Source: Mustelus asterias (taxonomy: Eukaryota). Taken from it: a DNA stretch of 64,000 nucleotides. Each line of letters opens with the position of its first letter. The stretch's first letter is position 1. This document shows, one piece after another, positions 1 to 56,315 of this stretch. Made by a program: the position numbers and the translations under genes. Where the stretch lies: positions 1,302,001 to 1,366,000 of the forward strand of contig NW_027590136.1 in the NCBI RefSeq assembly GCF_964213995.1. Direction: 5' to 3'. A model generated the notes under the pieces. It saw nothing but the letters and a program-made list of their open reading frames with translations, was not told where the DNA came from and searched no databases.

Positions 1-291
1 GGCTACTGTGCGGACTGCCATCAGTTCTGCTGATACTTCTGTCAAGGCTTGCCCTGTTTTTCGAGCTTCAGCTGCAGTGATATTAGCCAGTTGTTCCAGG
101 GCTGTGGCCATCAGAATTAACTCGTTTGCCGTTCTTCCTGTCCCATATAATGGAAAGGCCATCATAAAGAACCAGTCAGTCTTACTGATTGTTCGTTTTG
201 CTCGCGAAGGATAGCTTCGTAGGGAAGTCATGTGGTGCATATACGGCACTACATATCCCATATAACAGGAGCCTGTCCAGTTCACAGGAAG

Positions 292-1084
292 AAGTTTAAC
301 AACACCAGGTTAAAGTCCAACAGGTTTATTTGGTAGCAAAAGCCACACAAGCTTTCGAGGCTCTGAGCCCCTTCTTCAGGTGAGTGGGAATTCTGTTCAC
401 AAACAGAACTTATAAAGACACAGACTCAATTTACATGAATAATGGTTGGAATGCGAATACTTATAACTAATCCAGTCTTTAAGAAACAAAACAATGGGAG
501 TGGAGAGAGCATCAAGACAGGCTAAAAAGATGTGTATTGTCTCCAGACAAGACAGCCAGTGAAACTCTGCAGGTCCACGCAACTGTGGGAGTTACAAATA
601 GTGTGACATGAACCCAATATCCCGGTTGAGGCCGTCCTTGTGTGTGCGGAACTTGGCTATCAGTTTCTGCTCAGCGACTCTGCGCTGTCGTGTGTCGCGA
701 AGGCCGCCTTGGAGAACGCTTACCCGAATATCAGAGGCCGAATGCCCGTGACTGCTGAAGTGCTCCCCAACAGGAAGAGAACAGTCTTGCCTGGTGATTG
801 TCGAGCGGTGTTCATTCATCCGTTGTCGCAGCGTCTGCATAGTTTCCCCAATGTACCATGCCTCGGGACATCCTTTCTTGCAGCGTATCAGGTAGACAAC
901 GTTGGCCGAGTTGCAAGAGTATGTACCGTGTACCTGGTGGATGGTGTTCTCACGTGAGATGATGGCATCTGTGTCGATGATCCGGCACGTCTTGCAGAGG
1001 TTGCTGTGGCAGGGTTGTGTGGTGTCTTGGTCACTGTTCTCCTGAAGGCTGGGTAGTTTGCTGCGGACAATGGTCTGTTTGAGG
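292..1084 (-). mobile_element. Penelope-like element 3' fragment: GIY-YIG endonuclease + pLTR, with TSD TCACAGGAAG (282-291, 1085-1094)
   Basis: ORF 592..1119: CKTC, NVVYLIRC, WYIGET, RMNEH, GLNRD; exact 10-bp flanking duplication. Confidence 0.92.
346..382 (-). ncRNA. Minimal type I hammerhead ribozyme in Penelope pLTR
   Basis: Minus strand: cac CUGAAGA aggggcuc-a-gagccuc GAAA gcuu gug. Confidence 0.7.
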
Positions 1085-2063
1085 TCACAGGAAGCCAGGG
1101 ATATGCCTTTGTACTGCATATAAAGTAAGTTCCATTGTAGGCCGTAAAGTTATCAGCCAAAGTCATCCAAGGTTGTACAGCTTTTCCTTCCCATTGTTGT
1201 TTGATGTGATGTTGCATATTTCAGTCCAGTCTATTTTGAACATACCAGCTGTACTTAAATCTTTCACAGGTGGTTGCCATTCTAGAGTTTGCTGATATTT
1301 ACTTTCTCCAACTCTTGCTCCATCCACATTTTTCTTTAAACAGAAGGATCCTGGTCCATTTGATTTTTTAGGACCGTCAGTACAGGTGGGAACTGGGAAT
1401 GGTCGTAGGTCGGTTGGTACCATGTAGCAAACCTGATCATTCTATACCCAGCTGACTCCCACATTGTCATGTTTCCTCCTTCCCCTGTCTTATTTTGTCT
1501 CAATATCCATTCTATAGTTTCTGAAATCTGAAAGGGGAGAGACTGGAGTGGTAGGCCTTCTTGGGAATGGCTTGGGACATGAGTGCAGACCCAACATTTG
1601 CTTATGTTCAATCTTTCTGCATACATATATGACATATATAGGTAAGTATTTATATGCGATCTGTCTTCTTCCTGTTCATTTTTACTCTTGCCACCCCTCA
1701 TACTAAGTACTAGTATTATCCCCATCCATCCTACCCCTACTTTTCCCATGCTATCACAAGGAGGGAGAGTACAATTTATCACAGTTTTACACAATTCTTT
1801 TTCCGCGCTTAGTCGCCGCTACTACTATGTAGTTTATACAGTCTTTCAGCTTCAATTTCAGTGATTTCTCTTGTTTTGTCAGTTCAGTTGATAGCTCAGT
1901 TTCCTGGGTCGAATTCGATGAACCATGAACTTGAGCGGTAGAGTTTGTGTCAACAGTCCTTGTTCCTGAGGAAGGAAAATACTGATCACTGGTATACAAA
2001 TCAAATTTCCATCTTCTTTTAACGCATTGAAACAGATCTTCCCCTCTTTTGCAGTCTTTAGTG

Positions 2064-3957
2064 CTACATTGCAAAACAAGGAGCGTCAGTCTCAATCAAA
2101 GTTATCATGAGTCTATTCGGTGGGGGTAATTCAACTTGACCCCATTCCTGGACTTCTTGTTCGGGGATTTGTTCATTCTCTATTCGCACTACCATTTGTC
2201 GCATCATTAGTCTGGTAATAAAAGATCTCAAAGCAGGCAGTAAACAACAAAACATTAGTCCAATTATGATTATTACTACTACTATTATAACCCCTGCCTT
2301 TGCAAACCATGCTCCCCATTCTCCGAATACATTATCAAGCCAATTCCAAATATTATGGCCAAATCCAGCATTGTCATGCATTTCTTTCCTCAGATTTTGT
2401 AATTTGGTCATAGCTTTAGTGAATGAACCTTTTGGATCAGTGTTGTTAGGGATGAATGTACAGCATTGATCGCCAAACATAACACATACACCCCCTTTTT
2501 CTGCTAATAGCCAATCTCGTGCTTGCCTATTCTGCCAAGCCATTTTGCTAGTTGCATCTAACTGCTCACCTAGTGCAGTAAGAGCCTCATCAGTGTAGTT
2601 AATGAATCTCTGCTGATTGTAATAAATGTAATTAATCCATTCAGTGTTTTTGTTGGGGGTAATCCAAATTAGAATGGATTCAAACCCCGCAGCTATCTCA
2701 TTTCTCGCTTTAAATTCATTGGGGATTCCACGAGGTTGTCCTATTGCATCTAACTTTATTTCTGGATTAGGTGTGTATGACCTTCTCACTCTTCGACCTT
2801 CCATTTCATGTTCCATTGGTAGCAGGACAGTATTTTGTGCCAGCATGACCCTAGCACACAATCCAATCCACCGGCAGTTTTGCCATTAACCCCTTTTTGG
2901 GATCACACAGCCACCACAGATCAGCTAATTGGTTTACCTGTGATTCCAACACTTGTGCGGGAGGTGGTGTTCCCCCTTTTTGTGGCACATATAGACTACG
3001 GACATCCCCTATGTTCCATATTCTTTCACAATCCCTGGTGTAATTTCCTAATTCAGTTCCCTTACTATTTTCCCTCCAGTAACAATCTTGAATCAACAAA
3101 GCTGGTTTCATTTTCCATTCTTTTGGGTCTACTTCTACTGTCGTTCTAGGCCATTTTGGACATCTGTGGGTCAAATTATACGTACCTCTTCCTACCCCTG
3201 CATATAAGATACAGTGATATTGGCACACAGGTGCCTTCCCAGTACACAAATTATTGCAAGTGGATTCTGAACAATTTATTACTTGAGCAGTGAATGTCTG
3301 GCCCCCTATAGTGTACTTTCTCTCATAGGTTGGATATTTACTTTGACAATTTTCTTTTTTCCATTTTTGCTGCCAATCCCTACAATTCTTTGATCCCCAA
3401 GGTATATCTATTATCCAAGTACGAGGTTTCTCTGAAGCACATATCACACATTCTTTCCCATTATTATTTTTGTATCCTGTGTATTCAGCCCATTTCCACC
3501 ACTCATTTCTCTGTGCTTTTTCCCAAATTGTATCTGCTGCTACTGACCGCTTGTGATTTCTTTTTCTTAGTTGATAATAGGTAGAATCCCGATTACCTTC
3601 CTTACTCATCTTGCTGTTTGCTAATTCCTTAGTTTTTATTTTCCACATTTTTCTTCCTCCTCGGACTTTTAGTGTTGTGTCTGCTATAAATTGCTCTTTT
3701 CTATTATTCACCCAGGAAGTCTTTGGTGGCAATGGTTTCCAAGTCCCAAGTCGGTAAGGGGGCGGGAGCTGCTGCCCCTTCTTCCCCGCTTCCTGTACTA
3801 GGACCAGGAACATCATCTGGCCCATCATCCAAATCAAACTCAATGTTATCCTCACTATCCTCCCTCTCTGCATCTCTATTTTGATCTGGCACAGAACTAT
3901 TGGAACTTTCTCCTGTGTTTTCTTCGTCCCCACTACTACTTCTCTCCGGGCTTTCAA
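2064..3957 (-). pseudogene. env: ERV envelope 1 (SU+TM), frameshift near 2855
   Basis: Hydrophobic signal (ITLSLIWMMGQMMFLVLV), CxxC (ECVIC), furin site RRVRR, DAIGQPRGIPNEFKARNEIAAGFES, ISD-like QNRQARDWLLAEKGGVC, CX6CC (CVMFGDQCC), TM anchor AGVIIVVVIIIIGLMFCC. Confidence 0.9.
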
Positions 3958-4803
3958 CTTCGACAGCCTCTCTATCTTCCCCTATACCTGGTATTGTCCT
4001 AGTACAATGATTTAAATGGTACCACAGTGTACTGCCTTCTACTTGTAAGGCTGTGGGTGAAACTCTGGTAACATCGAAAGGTCCTTCTCTTCTTGGTTCG
4101 TCCCAGCACCTTCGGAATTTCCTGATGTATACTCGATCTCCAGGTCTGATTCGGTGGTCAGCCGCTGGGCTTTCTTCCTCTTTGGCTTTTTCCTGTTCAA
4201 ATATAGTTCTATGTATAACAGTTAATTGCTGCATCTACTCTTTAGTGTCCTGATCTAAACATTCTAATGTAGGGCCTCCTGTTCCCCTAATCTTTGGCAC
4301 GGGCATTAGTCACCCCGTCATCATCTCATGTGGACTTAAGTGTGTTCTTCTATTCTCCTGACTTCGGCATTGCATTAAGGCTAGTGGTAGGGCATCAATC
4401 CAGTTTTTCCCTGTATCGCTACAGATCTTGCTTATTTTGGCCTTAAGAACTCCATTTGCCCTTTCCACCATTCCCTGTGACTGAGGATGGTAGACACAGC
4501 CAAATTTCTGTTTCACTCGGAGCACTGAGAGGGTTTCTCTCAGTACCCTTCCTACAAATGCAGATCCATTGTCTGAACTTAATTGGGCTGGTATGCCAAA
4601 TCGTGGAATGACTTCTTTTGTCAGGAAGTTGATCACTGTTCCTGACCCTTGATCTTTAGATGGTGTTGCTTCTATCCATCTGCTGAATCTGTCAATGATT
4701 ACTAACATATATCTTTTCCCTTTTATCTTTTTCACCATGTCCACATAATCCATACACAGGTGTTTAAATGGTCCCTCAGAAATGGGTATATGTCCTATTG
4801 GAT
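3704..4803 (-). pseudogene. pol: Retroviral integrase (3' end of pol) with in-frame stops
   Basis: ORFs 4310..4753 and 3704..4234: GPFKHLCMDYVDM, MLVIIDRFSRW, SDNGSAF, HPQSQGMVERANG, GPF motif (REGPFDV); stop at 4310-4312. Confidence 0.92.
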
Positions 4804-4805
4804 TG

Positions 4806-7800
4806 TTGTTCCACAGGAGCAGGCTGAGGGTAAGGGAGCTTGTGTGTGCACTAATTTATTTAATTATTTTTCAGTTAAATTCGTGAAAAAAATCGGAGGT
4901 TGTTTTTCTAAACAGGAAATAGGCCCAGCAGCAGCCTGGGAAGGTTTTGGAGGGTTTAAAAGTAGGCCGCACCTTTGAGCGGGCAGCGTCATTAGCGGGC
5001 AGTGGAGTGAGCAGGGGACAGAGTGAGAGCTATAAGGGCTTTGGCTCACAGGGCTTCGGCGAGGAAGGTTGTTTGTTTGTTTTTCTTCGGTTACACCCCC
5101 TTTTTGTTTTATCCCCAAAACTAAAAAGGACATGGCTGGTATGAGTGGGAGGCCAGTATACTGCATCCGGTGTGGGATGTGGGAGTTCCTGGAGACAACT
5201 TGCCTCCCGGAAGTCCATATCTGTGCCAGATGTGTGGAACTGCATCTCCTGAAGGATCATGTAAGGGAGCTGGAGCTGAGGCTCGATGAACTCAGTTTAG
5301 TTAGGGAAAACGAGAGAGTAATAGATAAAAGTTATAGTCAGGTAGTGACACCAGGGTCTCGGAAGGAAGACACGTGGGTCACAGTTAGGAGGGGTAAGAG
5401 TCAGAAGGGTGATGTGCCAGAAAGTACCCCAGTGGCAGTCTCCCATTAAAGAAAGGAATGGGCAACAGATGGGAGAAGGGAAGGGAGTGAGCAGTCTGTG
5501 GAGGGATCCCCTGTGGTTGTCCCCCTCCAAAATAGGTATCTTGTTTTGGATTCTGTGGAGGGGGATGACCCTCCAGGGGTAAACCACGAGGACCAGATCG
5601 CCTCCACGGAGACAGGCTCAGGGGTCCGGAAGGGAAAGAAGGGGTTTAGGAGAGCGATAGTTGTGGGGGACGCAATGGTTCGAGGCACGGACAGGCGCTT
5701 CTGTGGGACTGAACGAGAAGCCAGGATGGTAGTCTGCCTCCCTGGTGCCCGGGTACTGGATGTCTCCGAGAGGGTAGGAAGCATATTTAAAAAGGAAGGT
5801 AGTCAAACGGATGTGATTGTACACATTGGGGGAAATGATGTAGGTAGGAAGAGCAGGGGGGTCATACGAGAGAAATTCAGGGAGTTGGGTGCTAGGCTAA
5901 AAAGTAAGACCTCCAGGGTAGCAATATCTGGACTGCTCCCGGTGCCTAGTGCAAGTGAGGCTCGGAACAGGGAGATTCTACAGTTGAACGCGTGGCTAAA
6001 GGACTGGTGCAAGAGGGAGGGTTTTAAATTCATAGATAACTGGGAAATCTTCAAGTCAGGATGGCAACTGTACAGAAAGGATGGGTTACACCTTAACTGG
6101 AAGGGAGCAAATATCCTGGCTGGGAGTCTTGCTAGAGTGTTTCGGCAGGATATAAACTAGTGTGGCAGGGGGGTGGGGAACAAAACAGGTGGTCAGTAAA
6201 TACTGAGGCTGGGGTCGAGCTGGGGGCCAGGGCAAGGCTAGCTAAGAAGAGGAGCACTCTGGAGGAGGATGACCTGAGTGGGCCTGGAGGTCTGGAGTGC
6301 ATCTGCTTCAATGCGAGGAGTGTAACGGGTAAAACAGACGAACTTAGGGCCTTAATGCTTGTGCGGAATTTGGATGTGGTTGCGGTGACGGAAACTTGGT
6401 TAAAAGAAGGACAGGACTGGCAGCTGAATATTCCGGGGTATAAGTGTTTGAGGCGAGACAGAGGAGGGGCTAAAAAAGGTGGGGGAGTAGCGATATTAGT
6501 TAAGGAGCATATTACCGCGGTGCAGAGGGTAGACAACTTAGAGGGGTCATGTACTGAGTCGCTGTGGGTGGAACTCAGAAACAGGAAGGGTGCAGTCACT
6601 ATGCTGGGGGTGTACTACAGACCACCCAACAGCCCACGGGAAGTGGAGGAAAGGATATGTCAGGAGATTCTGGAAAGGTGCAGAAAACATAGGGTTGTTG
6701 TAGTGGGGGACTTTAATTTCCCTGGCACAGACTGGAAAGTGCTTAGAGCTGGGGGACCGGACGAGGAGGAATTTGTAAAATGCGTACTGGAAGGTTCTTT
6801 GGAACAGTATGTAGATAGCCCGACTAGAGAGGGGGCAATACTGGACCTAGTTCTGGGAAATGAGCCCGGTCAGGTCGTCAAAGTTTCGGTAGGGGAACAT
6901 GTGGCAAATAGTGACCACAACTCTGTTAACTTTAGGATAGTAATGGACAAGGATGAGTGCTGTCCTACGGGCAGGGTGCTAAATTGGGGGAAGGCTGACT
7001 ATAGCCGGATAAGGCAGGAATTGGTGGATGTTGATTGGGAGAGGATGTTCGAGGGTAAGTCCGCGTCTGGCATGTGAGAGTCTTTTAAGGAACTATTGAT
7101 AAGGCTGCAGGATAGGCATGTGCCTGTAAAAAGGAAAGATAGGAAAGGTAGGATTCGAGAGCCGTGGATAACCAGGGAAATTGAGGATCTGATTAAAATG
7201 AAAAGGGAGGCGTACGTTAAGTCCAGGCAACTGAAAACAGATGGAGCTCTGGAGGAATACAGAGAGAGTAGGAAAGATCTCAAACGGGGAGTTAGAAGCG
7301 CAAAAAGAGGTCACGAGATGTTCTTGGCAGGCAGGATTCAGGAGAATCCTAAGGCATTCTATTCATACGTTAGGAACAAAAGAGTTGTCAGGGAGAAAAT
7401 CGGACCTCTCAGGGACAAAGGAGGGGAATTATGCTTAGAACCCAAGGGAATAGGGGAGATCCTAAATGAATACTTTGCATCGGTATTCACGAAGGAGAGG
7501 GGCGTGTTAACCGGGAGTGTCTCGGAGGGAGGTGTTGACCCGTTAGAGAAAATCTCCATTACAAGAGAGGAAGTGTTAGGTTTTTTAGGGAACATTAAAA
7601 CTGACAAAGCCCCAGGGCCTGATGGCATCTATCCTCGACTGCTCAGGGAGACGAGAGGTGAAATTGCTGGGCCTCTGACGGAAATCTTTGTCGCTTCTTT
7701 GGACACGAGTGAGGTCCCTGAGGATTGGAGGATAGCGAATGTGGTCCCGTTGTTTAAGAAGGGTAGCAGGGATAACCCTGGAAATTATAGGCCGGTGAGC

Positions 7801-9162
7801 TTGACGTCCGTGGTAGGGAAGTTGTTGGAGAGGATTCTTAGAGATAGGATGTATGTGCATTTAGAACGGAACAATCTCATTAGTGACAGACAGCATGGTT
7901 TTGTAAGAGGGAGGTCGTGCCTTACAAATTTGGTGGAGTTTTTTGAGGAAGTGACAAAAACGGTTGATGAAGGAAGGGCCGTGGATGTCGTCTATATGGA
8001 TTTCAGTAAGGCATTTGACAAAGTCCCACATGGCAGGTTGGTCAAGAAGGTTAAGGCTCATGGGATACAAGGAGAAGTGGCTAGATGGGTGGAGAACTGG
8101 CTTGGCCATAGGAGACAGAGGGTAGTGGTCGAAGGGTCTTTTTCCGGCTGGAGGTCTGTGACCAGTGGTGTTCCGCAGGGCTCTGTACTGGGACCTATGC
8201 TATTTGTGATATATATAAATGATTTGGAAGAAGGTGTAACTGGTGTAATCAGCAAGTTTGCGGATGACACGAAGATGGCTGGACTTGCGGATAGCGAAGA
8301 GCATTGTCGGGCAATACAGCAGGATATAGATAGGCTGGAAAATTGGGCGGAGAGGTGGCAGATGGAATTTAATCCGGATAAATGCGAAGTGATGCATTTT
8401 GGAAGAAATAATGTAGGGAGGAGTTATACAATAAATGGCAGAGTCATCAGGAGTATAGAAACACAGAGGGACCTAGGTGTGCAAGTCCACAAATCCTTGA
8501 AGGTGGCAACACAGGTGGAGAAGGTGGTGAAGAAGGCATATGGTATGCTTGCCTTTATAGGACGGGGTATAGAGTATAAAAGCTGGAGTCTGATGATGCA
8601 GCTGTATAGAACGCTGGTTGGGCCGCATTTGGAGTACTGCATCCAGTTCTGGTCGCCGCACTACCAGAAGGACGTGGAGGCATTGGAGAGAGTGCAGAGA
8701 AGGTTTACCAGGATGTTGCCTGGTATGGAGGGTCTTAGCTATGAGGAGAGATTGGGTAGACTGGGGTTATTCTCCTTGGAAAGACGGAGAATGAGGGGAG
8801 ATCTAATAGAGGTATACAAGATTATGAAGGGTATAGATAGGGTGAACAGTGGGAAGCTTTTTCCCAGGTCGGAGGTGACGATCACGAGGGGTCACGGGCT
8901 CAAGCTGAGAGGGGCGAAGTATAACTCAGACATCAGAGGGACGTTTTTTACACAGAGGGTGGTGGGGGCCTGGAATGCGCTGCCAAGTAGGGTGGTGGAG
9001 GCAGGCACGCTGACATCGTTTAAGACTTACCTGGATAGTCACATGAGCAGCCTGGGAATGGAGGGATACAAACGATTGGTCTCGTTGGACCAAGGAGCGG
9101 CACAGGCCTGGAGGGCCGAAGGGCCTGTTTCCTGTGCTGTACTGTTCTTTGTTCTTTGTTCT
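4806..9162 (+). mobile_element. Near-full-length CR1 LINE (5'UTR, ORF1, ORF2, 3' tail)
   Basis: 5'UTR homologous to the element at 23617-27835; tail gttctttgttctttgttc; one premature stop in each ORF. Confidence 0.95.
5132..6160 (+). pseudogene. CR1 ORF1 (zinc finger, leucine zipper, SGNH esterase), premature TAA at 5447-5449
   Basis: CIRC..CARC, ELELRLDEL, VGDAMVRG, HIGGND, DGLHLN; ORFs 5069 and 5498 are in the same frame. Confidence 0.9.
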
Positions 9163-9327
9163 TCTCTTCCGCCTTTACCGACCACTGCAAATGTTAAAAC
9201 CTTTTACATCTGTAACATTTTCCCCAGTTCTGATAAGCATAATCGTTCCTCTATTTCTAACTGGAAAACTGCCGCCCATCCAACTGAGCAACTTCAGAAT
9301 TGTACGTTGACATTTTGGACACTATAA
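6160..9327 (+). pseudogene. CR1 ORF2 (APE endonuclease + reverse transcriptase), one TGA at 7075-7077
   Basis: NARS, VTETW, GDFN, SDH; PGNYRPVSLTS, DFSKAFDKV, GVPQGSVLGP, FADD. Confidence 0.95.
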
Positions 9328-9604
9328 CGTTCCTGGTGCATTCGAGTACATGTGATCACTGGGATTGAGGGAGGTCATGCAGCCACTTACGGAAATGTCG
9401 TAACTCCCTGTACGAATATATCTGCAAACATCTCCTTAAATATCTAGGGTTCCAGCCACCTTCCATTCAAACCGGCAATTTATTTCGCACATTTACCACT
9501 TTCTGTGAATGAGAAGCATTTTTCGATATTATCCCAGAATTGCACTTTTTACTTCGAACCCGTGTCCCCGAGTCCCTGTCTACAATTAACGTTGGAGTAA
9601 AATT

Positions 9605-10259
9605 GAAAGTTGGGAATCAAGTAGATAAGGTTGTTAAGAAGGCATATGGTGTCTTGGCGTTTATTGGTAGGGGGATTGAATTTAGGAGTCGTAGCGTTAT
9701 GTTGCAACTGTACACAACTCTGGTGCGGCCGCACTTGGAGTACTGTGTGCAGTTCTGGTCCCCACATTACAGGAAGGATGTGGAGGCTTTGGAGAGGGTG
9801 CAGAGGAGGTTTACCAGGATGTTGCCTGGTATGGAGGGGAGATCCTATGAGGAGAGGCTGAGGGATTTGGGATTGTTTTCGCTGGAAAGGCGGCGGCTAA
9901 GAGGGGATCTTATTGAAACATATAAGATGATTAGAGGTTTAGATAGGGTGGATAGTGATAGCCTTTTTCCTCTGATGGAGAAATCCAGCACGAGGGGGCA
10001 TGGCTTTAAATTGAGGGGGGGTAGTTATAGAACCGATGTCAGGGGTAGGTTCTTTACCCAGAGGGTGGTGAGGGATTGGAATGCCCTGCCAGCATCAGTA
10101 GTAAATGCGCCTAGTTTGGGGGCGTTTAAGAGATCCGTAGATAGGTTCATGGACGAAAAGAAATTGGTTTAGGTTGGAGGGTCACAGTTTTTTTTTAACT
10201 GGTCGGTGCAACATCGTGGGCCGAAGGGCCTGTTCTGCGCTGTAATGTTCTATGTTCTA
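9605..10259 (+). mobile_element. 5'-truncated CR1 LINE 3' fragment
   Basis: LVRPHLEYCVQFWSP...FFTQRVV; tail gttctatgttct. Confidence 0.92.
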
Positions 10260-22305: not shown

Positions 22306-22339
22306 ATGAGCGGAGGACATTGCAGACATGACGGCAACG

Positions 22340-22900
22340 GTTGAACGGACACTGCACAACAATCGCCAGGCGGGAATGTTCCCTTCCAGTTGGGGAGCTC
22401 TTCAGCAGTCCAGGACATTCAGCCTCCAGTTTTCGGGTAAGCGTTCTCCAAGGCGGCTTTCAAGACATATGGCAACGCAGAATCGCCGAGCAGAAACTGA
22501 TAGCCAAGTTCAACATGCATGAGGACGGCCTTAACCGGGATCTTGGGTGAATGTCGCACTACTTGTAACCCTCACCATACTGCCTGGGTTTGCAAAGTCC
22601 TACGAACTGACCTGGTTTGAGACAATTCACACCCCTTCAACTTGTAATTGTCCCTCGCTCCACTCACACTGTTCGCACCTATAAAAACTTGATTATTTAC
22701 TTTATATTTACCTATAAAGACTCATATTAAATCACTCTTCACATACCAATCTGTAACTATCTTGCAGTTGTGTCTTTCATTATATATGCTGTGCTTGCGA
22801 ACTAACCTCCACGCACCTGATGAAGGAGCAGCGCTCCGAAAGCCCGTGATTCCAAATAAACCTGTTGGATCTTAACCTGGTGTTGCGAGACTTCTTACAT
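22340..22900 (+). mobile_element. Penelope GIY-YIG 3' fragment + pLTR
   Basis: ORF 22341: CSLPVGE..EQKLIAKF..GLNRD; homologous to 292-1084. Confidence 0.88.
22814..22848 (+). ncRNA. Hammerhead ribozyme motif with mutated cleavage triplet
   Basis: cac CUGAUGA aggagc-agc-gcucc GAAA gccc gug. Confidence 0.55.
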
Positions 22901-23405: not shown

Positions 23406-23697
23406 TCTCCCACCTTCCGTTGACTTCAATGTGATGGAAACTGACTGTTGGAACCTGTCAACATTAGAAATATATTTACAAATGATGGAAGGGTTTCTTC
23501 CAGATGGATCTTTCTCTGTTCTTTCTACTGGACGTGTTAGAAAACAGACTTTCTCCTGTGAATATCCAGCTGGAATATTCGGCACTGACGTGTTTCCTTG
23601 TTCATCTTTTTCACTCGAACATAGAACATAGAACAGTACAGCACAGAACAGGCCCTTCGGCCCACGATGTTGTGCCGACCTTCATCTGAAACCAAGA

Positions 23698-26604
23698 TCA
23701 AGCTATCCCACTCCCTACCATCCTGGTGTGCTCCATGTGCCTATCCAATAACCGCTTAAATGTTCCTAAAGTGTCTGACTCCACTATCACTGCAGGCAGT
23801 CCATTCCACACCACAACCACTCTCTGCGTGAAGAACCTACCTCTGATATCCTTCCTATATCTCCCACCATGAACCCTATAGTTATGCCCCCTCGTAATAG
23901 CTCCATCCACCCGAGGAAATAGTCTTTGAACGTTCACTCGATCTATCCCCTTCATCATTTTATAAACCTCTATTGAGTCTCCCCTCAATCTCCTCCGCTC
24001 CAGAGAGAACAGCCCCAGCTCCCTCAACCTTTCCTCATAAGACCGACACTCCAAACCAGGCAGCATCCTGGTAAATCTCCTCTGCACTCTTTCCAGCGCT
24101 TCCACATCCTTCTTATAGTGAGGTGACCAGAACTGCACGCAATATTCCAAATGCGGTCTCACCAAGGTCCTGTACAGTTGCAGCATAACCCCACGGCTCT
24201 TAAACTCCAACCCCCTGTTAATAAAAGCAAACACACTATATGCCTTCTTCACAGCTCTATCCACTTGAGTGGCAACCTTTAGAGATCTGTGGATATGGAC
24301 CCCAAGATCTCTCTGTTCCTCCACAGTCTTCAGAACCCTACCTTTGACCCTGTAATCCACATTTAAATTAGTCCTACCAAAATTAATCACCTCACATTTA
24401 TCAGGGTTAAACTCCATTTGCCATTTTTCAGCCCAGCTTTGCATCCTATCTATGTCTCTTTGCAGCCTACAACACCCCTCCACCTCATCCACTACTCCAC
24501 CAATCTTGGTGTCATCAGCAAATTTACTGATCCACCCTTCAGCCCCCTCCTCTAAGTCATTAATAAAAATCACAAAGAGCAGAGGACCAAGCACCGATCC
24601 CTGCGGCACTCCACTAGCAACCTGCCTCCAGTCCGAAAATTTTCCATCCACCACCACCCTCTGTCTTCGATCAGACAGCCAGTTACCTATCCAATCGGCC
24701 AACTTTCCCTCTATCCCACACCTCCTTACTTTCATCATAAGCCGACCATGGGGGACCTTATCAAACGCCTTACTAAAATCCATGTATATGACATCAACCG
24801 CCCTACCTTCATCAACACACCTAGTTACCTCCTCAAAAAATTCTATCAAATTTGTGAGGCACGATTTGCCCTTCACAAATCCGTGCTGACTATCCCGGAT
24901 TAATCCGCATCTTTCTAAATGGTCGTAAATCCCATCCCTAAGGACCTTTTCCATCAATTTACCAACCACCGAAGTCAGACTAACCGGTCTATAATTACCA
25001 GGGTCATTTCTATTCCCTTTCTTAAACAGAGGAACAACATTTGCCACTCTCCAGTCCTCTGGCACCATCCCCGTGGACAGCGAGGACCCAAAGATCAAAG
25101 CCAAAGGCTCTGCAATCTCATCCCTCGCCTCCCAAAGAATCCTAGGATACATTTCATCAGGCCCAGGGGACTTATCGACCTTCAGTTTATTCAAAACTGC
25201 CAATACATTCTCCCTCCGAACATCTACTTCCTCCAGCCTATTAGCCTGTAACACCTTCTCTTCCTGAAAAACATGGCCCCTCTCCTTGGTGAACACTGAA
25301 GAAAAGTATTCATTCATCACCTCGCCTATCTCTACTGATTCCATACACAAGTTCCCACCACTGTCCTTGACCGGCCCTAACCTCACCCTGGTCATTCTTT
25401 TATTCCTCACATAAGAGTAAAAAGCCTTGGGGTTTTCCTTGATCCGACCCGCCAAGGACTTCTCATGTCCCCTCCTAGCTCTCCTCAGCCCCTTTTTCAG
25501 CTCGTTCCTTGCTAACTTGTAACCCTCAGTCGAGCCATCTGAACCTTGTTTCCTCATCCCTACATAAGCTTCCCTCTTCCTTTTCGCAAGACATTCCACC
25601 TCTTTTGTGAACCACGGTTCCCTCACTCGGCCATTTCCTCCCTGCCTGACAGGGACATACCTATCAAGGACACCCAGTATTTGTTCCTTGAAAAAGTTCC
25701 ACTTTTCATCAGTGCCTTTCCCTGACAGTTTCTGTTCCCATCTTATGCCCCCTAATTCTTGCCTAATCGCATCATAATTACCTCTCCCCCAATTGTAAGC
25801 CTTGCCCTGCCGTCCGGCCCTATCCCTCTCCATTGCAATAACAAAAGACACCGAATTGTGGTCACTGTCTCCAAGGTTCTCTCCCACAACCAAATCTAAC
25901 ACTTGGCCCGGTTCATTTCCCAGTACCAAATCCAATGTGGCCTCACCCCTTGTCGGCCTATCCACATATTGTGTCAGGAAACCCTCCTGCACACACTGCA
26001 CAAAAAGTGCCCCATCCAAACTATTTGACCTACAAAGGTTCCAATCAATATTTGGAAAGTTAAAGTCCCCCATGACAACTACCCTGTGACCCCCACACAT
26101 ATCCATAATCTGCTTAGCAATTTCTTCCTCCACATCTCTATTACTATTTGGGGGCCTATAGTAAACTCCTAGCAACGTGACCGCTCCTTTCCTGTTTCTA
26201 ACTGCAGCCCATATTACCTCAGTGTGCATATCCCCCTCAAAGTGCTTTTCCGCAGCCGTTAAACTATCCTTGATTAACAATGCTACTCCTCCACCTCTTT
26301 TACCAGCTTCCCTACACTTACTGAAACATCTATACCCCGGAACGTCCAACAACCATTCCTGTCCTTGTTCTACCCACGTCTCCGTAATGGCCACAACATC
26401 GTAGTCCCAAGTAGCAATCCACGCCCCAAGTTCATCCACCTTGTTCCGGATGCTCCTTGCATTGAAGTAGACACACTTCAACCCATCTTCCTGTCTACCG
26501 GTACCCACCCTTGACCTTGATACCTTCCCCAATACCTCACCACCCTCAACACTGACTTCTGGACTACAACTCCTTTTCCCACTCCCCTGACAAATTAGTT
26601 TAAA
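23698..26604 (-). CDS. CR1 ORF2p (endonuclease-reverse transcriptase); no AUG before the endonuclease motifs, start inferred at the frameshift site
   Basis: Uninterrupted: NARS, ITETW, GDFN, SDH, PGNYRPVSLTS, QGSVLGP, FADD. Confidence 0.9.
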   Translation of the reverse strand, partial: FKLICQGSGKRSCSPEVSVEGGEVLGKVSRSRVGTGRQEDGLKCVYFNARSIRNKVDELGAWIATWDYDVVAITETWVEQGQEWLLDVPGYRCFSKCREAGKRGGGVALLIKDSLTAAEKHFEGDMHTEVIWAAVRNRKGAVTLLGVYYRPPNSNRDVEEEIAKQIMDMCGGHRVVVMGDFNFPNIDWNLCRSNSLDGALFVQCVQEGFLTQYVDRPTRGEATLDLVLGNEPGQVLDLVVGENLGDSDHNSVSFVIAMERDRAGRQGKAYNWGRGNYDAIRQELGGIRWEQKLSGKGTDEKWNFFKEQILGVLDRYVPVRQGGNGRVREPWFTKEVECLAKRKREAYVGMRKQGSDGSTEGYKLARNELKKGLRRARRGHEKSLAGRIKENPKAFYSYVRNKRMTRVRLGPVKDSGGNLCMESVEIGEVMNEYFSSVFTKERGHVFQEEKVLQANRLEEVDVRRENVLAVLNKLKVDKSPGPDEMYPRILWEARDEIAEPLALIFGSSLSTGMVPEDWRVANVVPLFKKGNRNDPGNYRPVSLTSVVGKLMEKVLRDGIYDHLERCGLIRDSQHGFVKGKSCLTNLIEFFEEVTRCVDEGRAVDVIYMDFSKAFDKVPHGRLMMKVRRCGIEGKLADWIGNWLSDRRQRVVVDGKFSDWRQVASGVPQGSVLGPLLFVIFINDLEEGAEGWISKFADDTKIGGVVDEVEGCCRLQRDIDRMQSWAEKWQMEFNPDKCEVINFGRTNLNVDYRVKGRVLKTVEEQRDLGVHIHRSLKVATQVDRAVKKAYSVFAFINRGLEFKSRGVMLQLYRTLVRPHLEYCVQFWSPHYKKDVEALERVQRRFTRMLPGLECRSYEERLRELGLFSLERRRLRGDSIEVYKMMKGIDRVNVQRLFPRVDGAITRGHNYRVHGGRYRKDIRGRFFTQRVVVVWNGLPAVIVESDTLGTFKRLLDRHMEHTRMVGSGIA

Positions 26605-27521
26605 TCCCCCTGAAGAGCCGTAGCAAATTTCCCTCCCAGGATATTGGTGCCCCTCTGGTTCAGGTGCACCCCGTCCTGTTTGTAGAGGTCCCACCTTCCC
26701 CAGAACGTGTTCCAATTATCCACGTATCTGAAACCCTCCCTCCTGCACCATCCCTGCAACCACATGTTTAAGTGCACTCTCTCCCTGTTCCTCAACTCGC
26801 TATCACGTGGCACCGGTAGCGTACCAGAGATGACCACATGTTTTGTCTTTGCTCTCAGCTTCCAGCCGAGCTCCCGAAATTCCTGTTTTAAATCCCGGTC
26901 CCTTCTCTTACCTATGTCGTTGGTACCAATGTGTACCACGACTTGTGACTGTTTCCCCTCCCCCTTAAGAATCCGGAAAACACGGTCCGAGACGTCACGG
27001 ACCCTGGCATCCGGTAGGCAACAAACCATCCTCGAGTCTCTTTTGCTGCCACAGAACCTCCTATCTATCCCTCTAACTAACGAGTCCCCAATAACTATTG
27101 CCCTCCCGCTCTCCTCCTTACCCTCCTGAGCCACAGGGACGGACTCAGTGCCGGAGATCCTCTCACTGCGGCTCACCACTGGTATGTCGTCCCCCTCAAC
27201 CGTATCCAAAGCGGAATACTTATTGCTAAGGGGAACGACCACAGGGGATCCCTGCACCGACTGCTTCTTCCCAGCCCCTCTCACCGTCACCCATCTATTT
27301 TCATTCCGCGGAGTAACTGTATCCCTGAAGCTTCTGTCTATGGCCATCTCTGCATCCCTAATGATCCTAAGTTCCTCCAACTCCAGCTCCAGTTCCCTTA
27401 CACGGTTTTGGAGGAGCTGCAGATGGATGCACTTCTCACAGGTATAATCAGCAGGGACACTGACGTCGTCCCTCACCTCGAACATAGTGCAAGAGGAACA
27501 TTGCACTGCCTTCACACCCAT
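26595..27521 (-). CDS. CR1 ORF1p (zinc finger/leucine zipper/SGNH esterase)
   Basis: ATG start; CSSC..CEKC, RELELELEEL, GDSLVRG, HIGTND, DGVHLN. Confidence 0.92.
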   Translation of the reverse strand: MGVKAVQCSSCTMFEVRDDVSVPADYTCEKCIHLQLLQNRVRELELELEELRIIRDAEMAIDRSFRDTVTPRNENRWVTVRGAGKKQSVQGSPVVVPLSNKYSALDTVEGDDIPVVSRSERISGTESVPVAQEGKEESGRAIVIGDSLVRGIDRRFCGSKRDSRMVCCLPDARVRDVSDRVFRILKGEGKQSQVVVHIGTNDIGKRRDRDLKQEFRELGWKLRAKTKHVVISGTLPVPRDSELRNRERVHLNMWLQGWCRREGFRYVDNWNTFWGRWDLYKQDGVHLNQRGTNILGGKFATALQGDLN

Positions 27522-28187
27522 CCCCTCTAGATACCTTGCCAGTACCAGGTAGAAACAGCAAAAAATGAATTAACTCACCCCTGCTCGCCCAAGCCCTGTG
27601 AGCCAAAGCCCTACAGCTTTCACTCTGCCTCCTGCTCACTCTGCTGCCCGCTAATGAGGCTGAAAACTGCAAGTTAAGCACTTTTAAACCCTCCAAAAAC
27701 CTTCCCAGACTCCTGCTGGGCCCACTTCCTGTTTTAAAAAAAACCTCCGATTTTTTACACAAATTTAACTTAAAATAAATAAATAAATGTAGTGAACAAA
27801 CCAACTGCCTTCTCCTCAGCCTGGTCCTGTGGAATATTGAATATTTTGGTTTCAGACAGCAGATAATCAAACTCCCAGCAACAGACTGTCTATTACTGAC
27901 TTTATTAACAGCACTGCAATAATACAGATTAATTCCAAATTAGTTCCTTAACGAAGTAGTTAAATGATGGCATTCATTTGTATTTCAGAGTCAGTAATAT
28001 AGGAATGGTGTACTGGTCTTTAATTTCGATACAATTTTAATTCAATGTTCCTTCTTTCAATATCCTTTCCACCACTTCCCCGTTACCTGATTAATTTGAG
28101 ATACCAGCAGACACAATGTAAATCACAGTTGCTGTGGGCAATTGACGTGTTTGTGGCGTCAGTTTCTGAATATCAGGGCATCGGAGC

Positions 28188-28965: not shown

Positions 28966-29189
28966 NNNNNNNNNNNNNNNNNNNNNNNNNNNNNNNNNNN
29001 NNNNNNNNNNNNNNNNNNNNNNNNNNNNNNNNNNNNNNNNNNNNNNNNNNNNNNNNNNNNNNNNNNNNNNNNNNNNNNNNNNNNNNNNNNNNNNNNNNNN
29101 NNNNNNNNNNNNNNNNNNNNNNNNNNNNNNNNNNNNNNNNNNNNNNNNNNNNNNNNNNNNNNNNNNNNNNNNNNNNNNNNNNNNNNNNN
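28966..29189. other. Assembly gap (224 N) flanked by (GA)n and (GGAT/GGAC)n microsatellites
   Basis: Run of N in the sequence. Confidence 0.99.
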
Positions 29190-29342: not shown

Positions 29343-32300
29343 TTAAAAATTAACACATTGTTTGAGTGGATATTTCACCAAATTCTTTAACTCGGCTCTG
29401 ATTTTACTCTGAGTCCCAGCATAAATCAATGGGTTAATGCAGGAACACAAAAACAGAAGCATATATCCAGTTTCCTCAAGATTAAATGTATTACTGAAAC
29501 CAGAACCTGAGAAATACGTACCTTTCGCAATTCGGACATAGATGATAGTTATAAAAAATAACAAGTATAACAGGATGAAATTTCCCGAAATGGTGAAGAG
29601 TAAAACAATGGACTTTTTCCGCTTCTCCACCTCTGGGTCACTCTGATTCTTTCCATTGTTCTGGGCCCGGAGTCTCCTGCGGGCTCTATTGGCCGCTAGA
29701 ATGTGTCTTACAGTAAGAGCATTCAGCAGCAAAATCAAAATGAATGGAAGGATAGGAGTGACAATACAACGCATCAAGTCATAAGCAGCCCAGAAAGGGG
29801 ATGTGTAAAATATTAACTTTACGTTGCCGAACCAGGGTACATCGTTAATTATGTACAGGGGTTCATAAATAAAGTACACAAAGACATTTTTTACACAGGC
29901 GAGTGTGGACACGATTCCAATGACCCACGTGGCCACATTTTCATTACAATATTTAACTTTGAGCTTCTGGCAACAAATAGCCACAAATCTATCAAACGTG
30001 AAAGCGACGGTTAACCAGACAGAGTTGTCCATGGCGGTAGAATGTAGGACTGTACGGACGCTGCAAACTGGTGTTACAGACAAAAAGCTCAATGGAAAAA
30101 AGATTCCCGCAATCCGGTTTAATATCACAGCAGATATTATGAGCAGGAGATCCACCACCGCTATGGACACAAGGTAATACGTGATACATCTGGAGAGACC
30201 ACAACTTTTTCTTGCGAGGACCAAAATCACTGCTGTGTTAGCTGTAATAGAGGGAAAGAGATTGTGAGAATTTGTGCATGACGAAGCATGGGAAGTGGAA
30301 CATTCATCGCAACAAAACAATCCATGATGTTGCATTCTGTGTGATGTATGCAAAATTTATACCTGATCTCAGGGACACTTGTTTCTGCTTAATAACAATA
30401 TCTTTATTAATAATAAGGAATGTTAACGAAAGTGACTGTATTTTTAATGAGAACTGAGAGAGGAATAATGCGAAATGGAAAGAATATCAAAACCAAAACT
30501 GAATAATTAAATGCACAATACAATGACATGTAAACAAGTAATTCAAAAATATTGGAGAAGATAAATTGGAAAATATCCAATAATAAGTGCGGAAGTTAAT
30601 ATGGTCACGGATTATATTTCAATGCGTATTAAATATGGCTCCATGAATGACAGCAAAATTATTTACTTTTGGAAACGTTTGCAGTGAATTTTCTCGAATA
30701 AATCCTCAAACAAAGGCAAATAAAAGGACAATTGTTAGCAGTTGTCGGAACTTGCAGATTTAGGAAGCAGCGCCAAGACTGAATTGTATCCCTGATAATC
30801 ATCTGAAATATCCGGTGAAATATAAAACGAGAGATTTGACGAGTTACTTTGCTTGACTCTTTGCAGAGAACAGAACAATTTGAAACGATGCTGGGTTCTG
30901 GGACAGAAAGGAATCAAGCAATCAGGAGCAGCAAATGTGAAATATGATTCCCGGGCTGAGCCAATGAGTGTTTGGCACTGGGAGCAGGCACAGATTGTTG
31001 TTAGTTCGGGATAAATAACAATCATTCATCAAAGGGTAACTGTTTGCATTATTTCAGCCTTCTACATATCCATCCCTGACGTTCGGTCAGAACAACGGGC
31101 GGCACGGTAGCACAGTGGTTAGCACTGCTGCTTCACAGCTCCAGGGTCCCGGGTTCGGTTCCCGGCTCGGGTCACTGTCTGTGTGGAGTTTGCACATTCT
31201 CCTCGTGTCTGCGTGGGTTTCCTCCGGGTGCTCCGGTTTCCTCCCACAGTCCAAAGATGTGCGGGTTAGGTTGTTTGGCCAGGTTAAAAATTGCCCCTTA
31301 GAGTCCTGGGATGCGTAGGTTAGAGGGATTAGTGGGTAAATATGTGGGGGTAGGGCCTGGGTGGGATTGTGGTCGGTGCAGACTCGATGGGCCGAATGGC
31401 CTCCTTCTGCACTGTAGGGTTTCTATTCTATTCTAACATCCCATCCATGCCCTTCTGTCCGCCCTGTCCCTGTAATCCCGCGCATTTACCATTGCTAATC
31501 CAACTAACGTACACATCCATGGGCATTAAGGTGCTTCTTTACGCGGCAAATCTACATAACTTGCGCAGTTTTGTATTCTGGGCACCTGGAGGAAACCCTC
31601 ACGCACACATGCGAAGAATATGCAAACTCCACTCAGACAACACATCTCTGGAATTGACCCCCTGTTTATTGTGCTATGAGGCAGCAGTGCCAACCACAGT
31701 GTACCTCTGCTGCTCAGTTTGAGAATTCGCCCAAAGGAATATTGTCAACGCCAACACAACAATCATAATAACTTTATAAACAAAAAACATAAATAACAAA
31801 ACATAAATAACAAAATTGAATTGTGTTTAACCATTATAACAGAACGGAAATGTAAATCAGAATGAATAACACAGTAAAACTTCGACTGTCAGATGTTACT
31901 GGTGAATGGGACAGGTTATATTACCAACTGATGAAATGGTACCTGTCACAGCACGGTTGTATAAGGTTAACACGGTGAAATCATGTATTTAATGTGAAGA
32001 AACTACGGTGGGGAGGACGTAAAATTATACCGTTAAATTTGTAGAATTTATGGAATGAACATCGAAAAATTATGTCAGGGAATAGTTAAATTATAATGCC
32101 AAATAAGGAATTGTCTGCTGAAGTAGAAACGGGACATTTTCGAGGAATACGTTAAAGGGCAGAAAACAGAACTTTGACGGGGAAACCTATATCCCTTTCA
32201 ATGAGAGGAGGAACTTGGTGCTGTTGAGATAAGGTGGTAATAAAGTGGAGGAATTAATGCAACCAAACAATATTTTTCGCCAGCAACTAAATAACTGAGA

Positions 32301-51399: not shown

Positions 51400-54300
51400 A
51401 TATTTCTCCCTGGTCTTGAAGCGGGAACTTTCGCGTGTGAGTCAAACATGACAACCACTGCACGACGAGATGCGAATATGTGCACGGTGTCAAAATCGAA
51501 ACGTTTCTTTCCTGTCAGTGCGTCAAAGAAATATCAGCATCCCTTATTTTACAGAAAACATTTGAGGCCGAGGTCAGAGCAAAGGTAAGGTGGCTGTAAT
51601 CTCGAGATTCGGATAATGTTGACCAACGAACGGAAATGATACAGATTTCCCTCACCCTTAATGAGAAAGCTTAATGAACGTTTTTGCTTGGTTTTGAACC
51701 AGGGACTTATCACGTGTCAGGTGAACCTGATAACCACTACACTACAGAAACAGCTGATCTAGCCGATAGCAAATCGGCCTGTCTGCAATGTTCAACTGCG
51801 CTATGGTGCTGCACGTTCAAATGGTTAGACAGAGAGCCCCCCATCTCCTCCGCCCCCCTTCCGCCCCACGCCCCCGCCCTCCACCCCCCCCCCCCCCCCC
51901 CACGCCCCCCATGTTTCAGGAAGATAGCCGTTACTTTCAATCTGATTGCTCAATTTATATTGAACTTCAAACCTTAGAAGCGTTCGTCTGGAAAATATCT
52001 GAGGGAGCAATGATTTCTGCTCATGCATTAATGCATCATACTCATCTTGCTTCGAATAATCTCAACCAATTGTACTCAGTAATAAAAACAATTTACCGCG
52101 GATGCTGGAATCTGAAACCAAAAGAGAAAATGCTGGAAAATCTCGCAAGGTCTGGCAGCATCTGTAAGGAGAAGAAAGAGCTGACGTTTCGTGCCCAGAT
52201 GACATTCGTCAAAGCTCATTTTACAATTGTACTCAGTATGTATTTCATTATCCAATATTTAATATCAGGACGTTATTTAACACATAGATCTTCTTTATGA
52301 TTTGAATATCTCTGAAATTGAATATCATGAATTGCAAACATAACTGACCAACAGAAGGAAGCGAGTCTCCGGGCAATGCAGATCGCAATTTTGACCTTGA
52401 ACATAGTCTGATGTTAAATAAAATCAACTACATTTAAATGGAAGAGATTGAAAAGATATCTGTTAGTTGCACTTGAGCCTTTTAATTATGGGTGTGAAAC
52501 ATTCAGGCGCATAAATTCTGGCCATCTTTAGGAAAGTCCAATAGATCCGCACTGAGTCTCGATTTCCTCATCTGGCTGAGTGATTTTTCCTATTACTTTG
52601 TTATGAAGAACGATTTCAAAAAAAAGCTGTAGGACACGTGCGTCATTTCCTCTAGTTCGCTTGCACTATGTCTTGTGTCTGTCTTTTTGAGCGCACACTG
52701 CTTTTAGACATGTTTCAGATGGTAATTAACTATGTTAGTCTGCACCTATAAACCCATTAAATTCTGTTATAGGCTGAAAGAGATGCTAATATGTGCAGGT
52801 TGTCAAAATTGAAAATTTCCTGTCAGTGCGTCAAAAGAATCAGCATTTCATATTTTGCAGAAAACATTTGGGGCCGAGCTCAGAGCAAAGATAAGATGGC
52901 TGTAACATCGAGATTTGGATCATGTCCAGCAACGATCTGAAATCATACAGACTTCCCTCACCCGACATGGGAAAGCTGATGAATGTTCTGCCCGGTTCTG
53001 AAGCGGTGATCTTTCACGTGTTCGGCCAATGTGATAACCACTACACTATAGAAACAAGAGAATGCGCCACGCCGCCAATTGGCCTGACTACAATGTTGAA
53101 CTACATTGTGTTGCTGCAGGTTGTCATGGTCAAATTGAGGGTCCATGTCACTTAATAGAAGAACAAATCCGATTTTTCAACCTGATGTCTCAACTTATCT
53201 TGAACTTCGTCTGGCAAATGTCTCAGGCGGCAACGAATTCCGCTCAATCATTAATACATCATTCTCATCTCCCGTCAAATAATTTCAAACAGTTATATCA
53301 AATATTTGTAGTTATTCAATATTTAATTTCAGTACGTTTATTTAACACAGATGTCCTCATTCTGAATTGGATACCTCTGAAATATACAACATTTTCTTGC
53401 AAACATGACTGACCAACAAAATAAATAGAGTCACTGCGTAATACACATGCCATGGTGCTTATTTGAGATTGACAACATTCATCCTTTAAAATATACTTGA
53501 ATCCCCGCTATTCTGTTTGTGAAGTATTCTGGCGCCTAAATCACGTTCATCTATCGGAAGTCCAGGAGGTCCGCACTGAATCTCGATTTCCACATGGGTC
53601 TGAGTGGTTTTAGCTATTTCTTTATTGTGAAGAGCAATTTTAAAAACGTGCTTCTGCGAAATGCGCGCCATTTACTCCAATTCAGTTCCAATTTCAATTG
53701 TGTCTCTCTTTATGAGCACACAATACAATTTGATATGTTTCAGATGTTGATTAACTATGTTAGTCTGCACCAAAAACCCATTGAATTCATTTGTGGACTG
53801 CACGAGTTGCGAATATATGAACAAACAATAGAGTTTTTCATTCCCTGCGTCCTAAAATGCATCAGTTCCGATTTTCGTAAATGCATTTGAGGCCGACGTC
53901 AAAGCCCATATAACATGACCATATAAGATTATATCGGATTCGCATGACGTTGAGCAACGAACCTACATCGTGCAGACTCCGCTCACGCTTAACGCGAACG
54001 ATCCAACAGCATTTCTACCCGTTTCGAACTGGGGATTTGTCGTGTGTGAGGCGACCGTGATAACCATTACACTACAGGAACAGCTGACAGTGCTCACTTA
54101 TCGTTTCACTTGTATCTGTCTTTTTGAGCACACACTACGATTAGGTATGTTTCAGATGGTGATTAACTCTGTTAGTCTGCACCTATTAACCCATTAAATT
54201 CTGTTGTAGACTGAACGAAATGCTAATATGCGCATGTTGTCAAAATAGAAACGTTTCTTTCCTGTCAGTGCGTCAAAATATTCAGCATTTATTTTACAGG

Positions 54301-54997: not shown

Positions 54998-56262
54998 TCA
55001 CAGTAAGAAGTCTTGCAACACTAGGTTCAAGTCCAATCAGTTTACGTGGTCGCACGAGCTTTCGGAGTACTGCTCCTTCATCAGGTGAGTGGAGAGTTGG
55101 GTTTAGAAACAGGGCATAGAAAGACACAGACTCAATTGCAAGATAATGGTTGGAATGCGTGTCTTAACAGCGAATCAAGTCTTTACAGGTACAGACAATG
55201 CGAGTGGAGAGGGGGACAATGACAGGTTAAAGCGGTGTGAATTGGCTCACGCCAGGCCAGTTGGTAGGATATTGCAAGACCAGGTCAAATGGTGGGGGTT
55301 ACAAGTCGTGTGACATGACCGCAAGGTCCCGGTTGAGGCCGTTCTCATGTATGGAATTTGGCTATCAGTTTCTGCTCAGCGATTCTGCGTTGTCGTGCGT
55401 CTTGAAGGCCGCCTTGGAGACCGCTTACCCGAAGATCGGTGGTTGAATGCCCTTGACTGCTTAAGTGTTCCCCGACAGGAAGGGAATATTCTTACCGGGT
55501 GATTGTCGAGCGGTGTCCATTCATCTGTTGTCGTAGCGTCTGCATGGTCTCGGCGATGTACCATGCTTCGGGATATCCTTTCCTGCAGCGTATGAGGTAG
55601 ACAACGTTGGCCGAGTTGCATGTGTATGGATCGTCTACCTGGTGGATTCTGTTCTCACGTGTGATGGTGGCATCCGGGTCGATGATCCAACACATCTTAC
55701 AGAGGTTGCCCTGGCAGGGTTGTGTGGTGTCGTGGTCGCTGTTCTCTTGAAGGCTGGGTAGTTTTCTGCGAACAATGGCCTGTTTAAGGTTGCTCTGTTT
55801 TTTGAAGGCAAGTAGTGGGGGCGTGGAGATGGCCTTCGCGTGATATTCGTCTTCATCGATTGTACGCTGAAGGCTCCGAACAAGATGTCATAGCTTCTCC
55901 ACTCCGAAGATGTCTTGGCTTCTGCCCTCTGGGGACGTACTGGAGGAGGAAGGGCACTCTGACGGCCGTGTCCCCTACTTGTCTTCTGAGGAGGTCGGTG
56001 CGTGTTTTTGCTGTGGCGTGTCATAGAAATCATAGAAACCCTACAGTGCGGAAGGAGGCCATTCGGCCCATCCAGTCTGCACCGACCACAATCCCACCCA
56101 GGCCCTACCCCCACATATTTACCCGCTAATCTCTCTAACCTACACATCCCAGGACTCTCAGGGGCAATTTTTTTTTGTCGGAACTGTCGATCGATTAGTC
56201 AAGCGCAATATCCTGTTCTCGCAAGGGCGTCTGTCAAAAACGACACCGCTCAGATTCCGACG
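54998..56262 (-). mobile_element. Penelope element fragment (GIY-YIG + pLTR) with nested SINE piece at ~56023-56175
   Basis: CNSANVVYLIRCRKGYPEAWYIAET; homologous to 292-1084. Confidence 0.88.
55053..55087 (-). ncRNA. Minimal hammerhead ribozyme in Penelope pLTR
   Basis: Minus strand: cac CUGAUGA aggagcaguacucc GAAA gcUC gug. Confidence 0.7.
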
Positions 56263-56315
56263 TTCAACCTGAGCTGTTGGACTTCAGCTCCAAGGACAAA
56301 AACTTGCATCAACTC

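Follow-up and report, generated by a model that had tools for sequence, protein, structure and literature searches.

Retroviruses are taken to have one env gene, and envelope swaps are usually inferred from mismatched pol and env trees. Gamma-type Env proteins fall into nine published groups. The initial annotation of the locus studied here named as a precedent the two-env arrangement of XTERV1 of Xenopus tropicalis. The abstract of Sinzelle et al. (2011) on XTERV1 reportedly gives a classical LTR-gag-pol-env-LTR layout, in which case the two env frames of XTERV1 could belong to a single split gene. The human genes ENVV1 and ENVV2 are reportedly near-identical and situated in separate proviruses far apart from each other.

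XTERV1 is an epsilon-related ERV (PMC8278194). A second env of XTERV1 is not mentioned in the accessible text of PMC8278194 or PMC4131045, nor is one mentioned for its branch in that of PMC12690878. ENVV1 and ENVV2 have been described as two env genes in tandem (PMC2567338), whereas our locus has two unrelated env genes 314 nt apart. Epsilon-related fish ERVs have a gamma-type env and no accessory genes, and recombination between env and pol is frequent among anamniote ERVs (Chen et al., 10.1101/2021.11.23.469661). The ZFERV group (the ZFERV genome is 11.2 kb long, PMC4977317) resembles our locus in having an epsilon-like integrase with a GPY/F domain followed by a gamma-type env; 19 named relatives agree with our first env at 30-41 of 48 core positions. 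One env is described for this group (10.1101/2021.11.23.469661), whereas here a second, unrelated env stands behind the first; the phrase “two env” is absent from the available text of that work. A fish ERV locus, L002, has the same order of pol and first env. Two env clusters are known from chondrichthyans (Proudley et al., 10.64898/2026.05.06.723177), and a tandem env arrangement was not found in the part of that report available to us.

Entry of a foreign gene or env into the 3' half of a retrovirus by recombination, as proposed for our locus, is also seen in the env-acquisition recombinants BaEV, RD-114 and XtERV-S (PMC10536682) and in CrocERV29, an ERV with an extra captured ORF for KIT-ligand (PMC4299795). 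However, the new env replaces the old one in the three recombinants, and the extra gene of CrocERV29 is cellular. Our locus has two complete env genes next to each other. A provirus with two distinct env genes was not found in the searchable portions of open-licence PubMed Central papers or bioRxiv. In particular, none is described in the accessible text of PMC8672886, PMC8278194, 10.1101/2024.07.05.601823, PMC4131045, PMC10536682, PMC12690878, PMC4977317, PMC9967133, PMC12813294, PMC5408684, PMC524368 or PMC4299795.

The window, i.e., the whole stretch of DNA analysed, is 64 kb long. On its minus strand an integrase, a first env (env1), a 314-nt spacer and a second env (env2) follow each other in this order, env2 running off base 1. 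The tandem is real: two unrelated gamma-type env genes follow one another in a decayed fish ERV. Our preferred reading, which we hold to be about as likely as not, is that a recombinant class I retrovirus with two envelope genes left its decayed 3' half here.

The integrase (3704..4808, minus strand) includes the core, the GPY/F C-terminal domain and an acidic tail. It matches Pfam rve (E=2e-18) and MLVIN_C (E=5e-11), which confirms the annotated integrase upstream of env1, and it has 2 premature stops in 1.1 kb. Its tail is 64% identical to the ray protein P0096, and the integrase is 35% identical to pol of L002. With a GPY/F domain and closest similarity to fish class I ERVs, it probably belongs to an epsilon-like class I ERV. 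At about 4809 the integrase is cut by a CR1/L2-type LINE (4809..9170, plus strand) with a GDSL esterase, an endonuclease and a reverse transcriptase. The provirus does not resume behind the LINE within the 64-kb window, and no target-site duplication was found there. The gag, RT and RNase H frames of L002 gave no match in the window beyond the integrase and env1; thus the 5' LTR is lost and the 3' end lies outside the window. The stretch 1086-4808 has no second copy anywhere in the window. Rfam gave no match in 1-10000. A bacterial promoter scan, whose model is irrelevant to this sequence, returned 0 sites. The window sequence includes an N gap at 28966-29189.

env1 starts at ATG 3873 with a signal-peptide-like hydrophobic segment that overlaps the pol tail. 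Its SU frame (2851..3873, minus strand, within the open frame 3981-2851) contains CVIC at 3450-3439. The SU end and TM (2064..2885, minus strand) contain RVRR (2792-2781), ISD (2534-2496), CX6CC (2486-2460), a hydrophobic membrane anchor and a tail. The initial annotation called env1 complete. This holds for the motif set (CxxC, RVRR, ISD, CX6CC and anchor) but not for a single intact frame, SU and TM being in different frames; the gene (3873-2064) has one frame break at about 2885-2851, i.e., 1 per 1.8 kb. With CxxC in SU, a furin site, ISD, CX6CC and an anchor all present, env1 is a gamma-type Env, and it matches Pfam TLV_coat (E=9e-10). Its SU has 25% identity over 241 aa to the Mobula env P0032. 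Its TM has 312 homologues among 818 candidates, those with names coming from rays, sharks, teleosts, amphibians, birds and man.

env2 is split into two parts. The 5' part (1085..1749, minus strand) starts at ATG 1749, directly followed by a hydrophobic, signal-peptide-like segment, and contains CWVC (1596-1585) and NGTYFIC (1136-1116). It is spread over three frames with breaks near 1441-1336 and 1220-1163 (2 in 0.95 kb). The 3' part (1..291, minus strand) contains WTGSC (279-265), RAKR (204-193), a hydrophobic TM N-terminus and a heptad that runs off base 1, the part ending just before ISD. All of the annotated env2 motifs, up to the heptad at base 1, were thereby located, as was the second signal peptide that had been placed about 300 bp past env1. 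In contrast, the claim that the 3' part appears only after excision of a Penelope element did not stand: positions 1-309 are an ordinary frame, open at the window edge.

The element that splits env2 was correctly recognized. It is a 5'-truncated Penelope-like element (292..1084, minus strand) with a GIY-YIG domain match (E=7e-5) and with copies in the window at 55.0-55.8 kb (80%) and 22.3-22.9 kb (70%). A 10-mer is common to both of its junctions (1094-1085 and 291-282), which occurred by chance in 18 of 5000 random pairs of 61-nt windows. Three of the 10 junction bases also match the element's own end, and we therefore state the target-site duplication as 7-10 nt. The proteins P0121 and P0122, which match 1243-1089 in the 5' part, cover both sides of the insertion as a single run (residues 1-26 and 25-121 of P0121).

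A search with positions 1-285, the 3' piece of env2, gave 3 protein matches among 148 candidates. Its identity is about 81-82% to P0121 and 76-77% to P0122, over 97 aa, and about 62% to a protein of the catshark Scyliorhinus torazame. Together with the ray protein nearest to the integrase tail, this points to a cartilaginous fish as the probable host. The ISD and CX6CC of env2 would lie beyond the window edge; both are found in P0121 and P0122, which extend into this region, and the anchor in P0121 alone. Since CxxC in SU and a furin site (RAKR) are both present, env2 is, judging from its motifs and homologues, one gene of gamma type. P0121 aligns to syncytin-2 over residues 11-227, including the SU end (217 residues, E=5e-21), and the 3' piece itself has no PDB match at E<=10. 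Thus the likeness to syncytin-2 or HERV-FRD-like Env is distant and seen via P0121 only, and env2 is broken, unlike a co-opted intact gene. The N-terminal piece (1749-1244, 170 codons) is joined to the rest only by contiguity and motif order. None of 24 candidates was significant in its homologue search, its PDB matches were at chance level, and its fold predicted from the single sequence had an unusable pLDDT of 41.

env1 and env2 are, by the comparisons that follow, deeply separate gamma-type lineages. In the 48-residue ISD-CX6CC core, the homologues of env2 agree with env1 at 22 positions, and 19 named relatives of env1 from fish, frog, bird and human agree with it at 30-41. For this comparison 21 named rows were taken from 120, and 2 were dropped for lacking CX6CC. 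The set was chosen as env1 matches, which favours the contrast; even so, the env1 core has more in common with envs of birds and man than with the env2 lineage. A TM tree (22 rows, 74 columns) splits the env1 and env2 groups at 100/100, the bootstrap being not fully settled. BLASTP found no similarity between the env1 and env2 pieces (best E 0.73); the ISD region was all that it showed the two lineages to have in common (32% over 100 aa). A local duplication of env was rejected: as the annotation had proposed, env2 is not one, since it is further from env1 than outside relatives are, and the TM phylogeny that it suggested gave two groups.

The spacer (1750..2063, minus strand) is of ambiguous origin. 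It contains no complete LTR, primer-binding site (PBS) or host repeat, no AATAAA, ATTAAA, CCAAT or PBS-like word, and no copy elsewhere in the 64-kb window, which is a weak test. The separate splice acceptors to be expected of two env genes have candidates here, recognized by pattern: the only two strong acceptor-like sites in 4810-1 are both in the spacer, at 1966 and at 1751, the latter directly before the env2 ATG. Two such sites occurred in 1 of 5000 simulated spacers, under a rule set post hoc, and one in 2.5% of simulations; for comparison, L002 has 7 weaker sites in 8.4 kb. These sites could serve env2. Between site 1966 and env2 there is an ATG (1926) that opens a short frame.

The initial annotation would have been contradicted by an LTR or target-site duplication of env2's own in the spacer. 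A complete LTR or PBS was not found there; a polypurine-tract-like run and a TATA box were, and they are compatible with an LTR remnant. Some 14 nt past the env1 stop comes a run of 14 purines (2050-2037; about 1% of simulations), and TG follows it. TATAAA is at 1838 (12% of simulations) with a CpG-rich start 30 nt later, GATAAA is at 1780 and CA at 1751-1750. This pattern fits a truncated 3' LTR, and site 1751 could be the pyrimidine-rich R end of such a remnant. The composition (A 35-36%, GC 40-45%) is continuous from the integrase through the 5' part of env2. Positions 1436-1749 of env2 are closer to pol-env1 in composition than all 370 control tiles. In composition the spacer is only modestly ERV-like (27 of 370 tiles do as well), and no ERV-likeness is seen for env2 1-281 (78 of 370).

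Another possible origin of the spacer is the decayed integrase tail of a second virus, which is a lead, not evidence. Parts of the spacer may resemble the C-terminal end of gamma-like class I integrases, where the env acceptor is in the same place. The three spacer frames have 10, 3 and 8 stops, i.e., the spacer is far more decayed than the adjoining genes. If it were truly an integrase relic, its heavier decay would mean long carriage in a replicating virus. Comparisons with integrases of epsilon-type references stayed at the level of controls. A DNA alignment scored 125, a score reached by 137 of 500 shuffles; for the protein frames, 46, 492 and 85 of 1000 shuffles did at least as well, and for the frameshift-tolerant scores 4, 5 and 22 of 25; a profile of three sequences was outscored by 111 of 370 tiles and by 251 of 500 shuffles. 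None of 58 proteins matched the spacer. Pfam recognized nothing in the 3 full frames and no integrase in any of 5 sub-frames, PDB gave chance matches for the 2 of 3 frames searched, and plasmids gave none. The spacer motif words had no relevant occurrence in the available supplements of published ERV papers. The most suggestive result was a pairwise match, in register, to the pol tail of L002, an epsilon-type reference (E=0.035).

If a single two-env virus did replicate, an epsilon-like virus with a ZFERV/ERV-V-type env (env1) would have gained a cassette from a second retrovirus just behind the env1 stop, consisting of the donor's splice-acceptor region and the whole env2. The route may have been a non-homologous template switch in reverse transcription or, alternatively, read-through into a neighbouring provirus with a later deletion. 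env1 would be expressed from the usual spliced mRNA, its acceptor having been in the part of pol now lost; for env2 there would be a further mRNA, with 1966 or 1751 as acceptor. Each gene would encode an SU-TM fusion protein that had a signal peptide, CxxC, a furin site, ISD, CX6CC and an anchor; env1 has all these features, and env2 has them up to the heptad, the remainder being taken from its homologues. Two receptor-binding proteins might have let one virus use two receptors, have caused interference, or have marked a half-finished envelope swap; dual tropism and superinfection resistance are the possible benefits that the initial annotation had suggested. Decay would have followed germ-line integration, and its traces are seen as stops, frame breaks, the Penelope in env2, and the LINE with LTR, gag and RT lost beside it.

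Several observations argue for such a single unit. env1 and env2 are on the same strand and 314 nt apart, without a host repeat, AATAAA/ATTAAA or PBS between them. Both genes are whole at the junction, where the env1 stop and the env2 ATG with its signal peptide are kept. The two acceptor-like sites and the continuous composition point the same way, as do the frequency of env-pol recombination among anamniote ERVs and the 11.2-kb genome of ZFERV. The lesion load is of the same order in the integrase, env1 and env2, a comparison of low power. Had two proviruses been freshly joined, an integrase C-terminus ought to be recognizable before env2; none of 8 spacer frame pieces matches one, unlike the stretch before env1 (E=5e-11), and this favours the single unit. 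Against it, a single copy of the env1-spacer-env2 junction was seen. The LTR-like pattern of the spacer, the ATG at 1926, and the low or absent ERV-likeness in composition of the spacer and env2 1-281 count against it too. None of 55 named env1 relatives (among 120 listed) carries env2-like sequence; these are proteins of 150-478 aa, a range that excludes long fusions. A collection of genome contigs, which is not a vertebrate genome set, gave 0 env2 loci (124 candidate stretches) and 2 env1 loci (48 stretches); one of these ends inside env and the other 105 nt past its stop, too short to show a sequel. We have somewhat less than even confidence in a stronger claim: that two complete and mutually unrelated gamma-type envs, both under selection, were carried by a replicating lineage of cartilaginous-fish retroviruses, with dual-receptor particles and an env2 cassette that brought the donor's decayed integrase tail and native acceptor.

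The main competitor, which we regard as possible though rather doubtful, is a one-off chimera made in the host genome. In this view the end of one provirus (pol, env1, polypurine tract and LTR) would have become linked to the env of another, nested in it or in tandem, through a deletion or an ectopic recombination. The joined end would perhaps be U3-R of the first provirus's 3' LTR; the junction would never have replicated as a virus, and the LTR remnant may have been a promoter of env2. The succession of purine run, TG, TATAAA, CpG-rich start at +30, GATAAA and CA makes a layout that resembles U3-R, is about 285 nt long and has no ATG ahead of that of env2. Rearrangement is evident here in any case: the 5' half of the provirus is gone beyond the LINE, where no target-site duplication could be detected. 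No two-env relative was found among the named env1 relatives or in the genome-contig scans. However, the spacer is without a canonical poly(A) signal, CCAAT box, U5 or primer-binding site, and it has no copy elsewhere in the 64 kb (weak). The join would have to fall by chance within about 60 nt of the env2 ATG, and acceptor-like site 1966, of a kind that only 2.5% of simulations have, would be left unexplained. The classical form of nesting, in which a separate ERV complete with LTR, PBS, gag and pol inserted behind env1, accounts for env2 being from a different lineage, but 314 nt is too short for these parts, and the spacer has no PBS, canonical poly(A) signal or gag/pol similarity. In its strict form it is excluded, and it survives only with a later deletion, as the chimera just described; overall we regard it as the least credible reading.

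A half-finished envelope swap, in which the recombinant replicated with one env needed and the other an outgoing passenger without dual function, would have an anatomy identical to that of the two-env recombinant, and acquisition of env is a common route (PMC10536682; 10.1101/2021.11.23.469661). The motif sets of both genes are nearly full and their lesion loads similar, with no marked excess of erosion in either, and such a swap seems to us unlikely. Still less probable is an assembly chimera of two ERV loci. The sequence is repeat-rich and scaffolded, with the N gap at 28966-29189, but at the junction there is no gap or repeat that would drive a mis-join, and the composition is continuous.

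If the locus does descend from a replicating two-env virus, an old and a new env in one genome would be the missing intermediate of a swap or a stable two-receptor design. The course of env exchange and the retention of two fusion proteins per genome would become testable, and ERV surveys seeded with env could count one two-env virus as two lineages. Should it instead be a chimera that arose once, we would class it as an ordinary ERV ruin.

The env2 lineage itself has 42 further relatives. The first 78 aa of the catshark homologue had a best score of 0.86 in an atlas comparison, with unnamed or BAR-type clusters, which was uninformative.

The long acidic tail of pol is overlapped, in another frame, by the signal-peptide region of env1 (3873-3704, minus strand). 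Fish class I ERV sequence is present on contigs from two Brevinema MAGs, at locus L002 (1-8436), with frames for gag, pol and env, and at locus L001 (1-1123). Its presence in these contigs is most likely due to host contamination.

In a protein of Scyliorhinus torazame (P0123, scyTo_0005063), the N-terminal 78 aa are env2-like, and the same protein carries an F-BAR-type domain. The env2-like N-terminus is probably an artefact of the gene model with an intronic ERV as its source; alternatively, it could possibly represent exonisation.

The Penelope-like element inserted in env2 has copies at 54998-55790 (plus strand, 80% identity) and at 22321-22896 (minus strand, 70% identity). Two long LINEs of the CR1/L2 type, located at 4809-9170 (plus strand) and at about 23600-27834 (minus strand), both include a GDSL-esterase ORF1, an endonuclease and an RT; the second contains an open frame of 1005 aa.

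A rhodopsin-family GPCR of 337 aa is encoded in one frame at 29346-30356 on the minus strand (7tm_1, E=1e-17). An N gap at 28966-29189 lies beside this frame. ARAGORN called tRNA-Val (51678-51752), tRNA-Leu (56315-56398) and tRNA-Ile (60015-60087), all on the minus strand. Further occurrences of the tRNA-Val-like sequence, perhaps as pseudogenes or SINE heads, lie at about 53.0 and 54.0 kb of the window.
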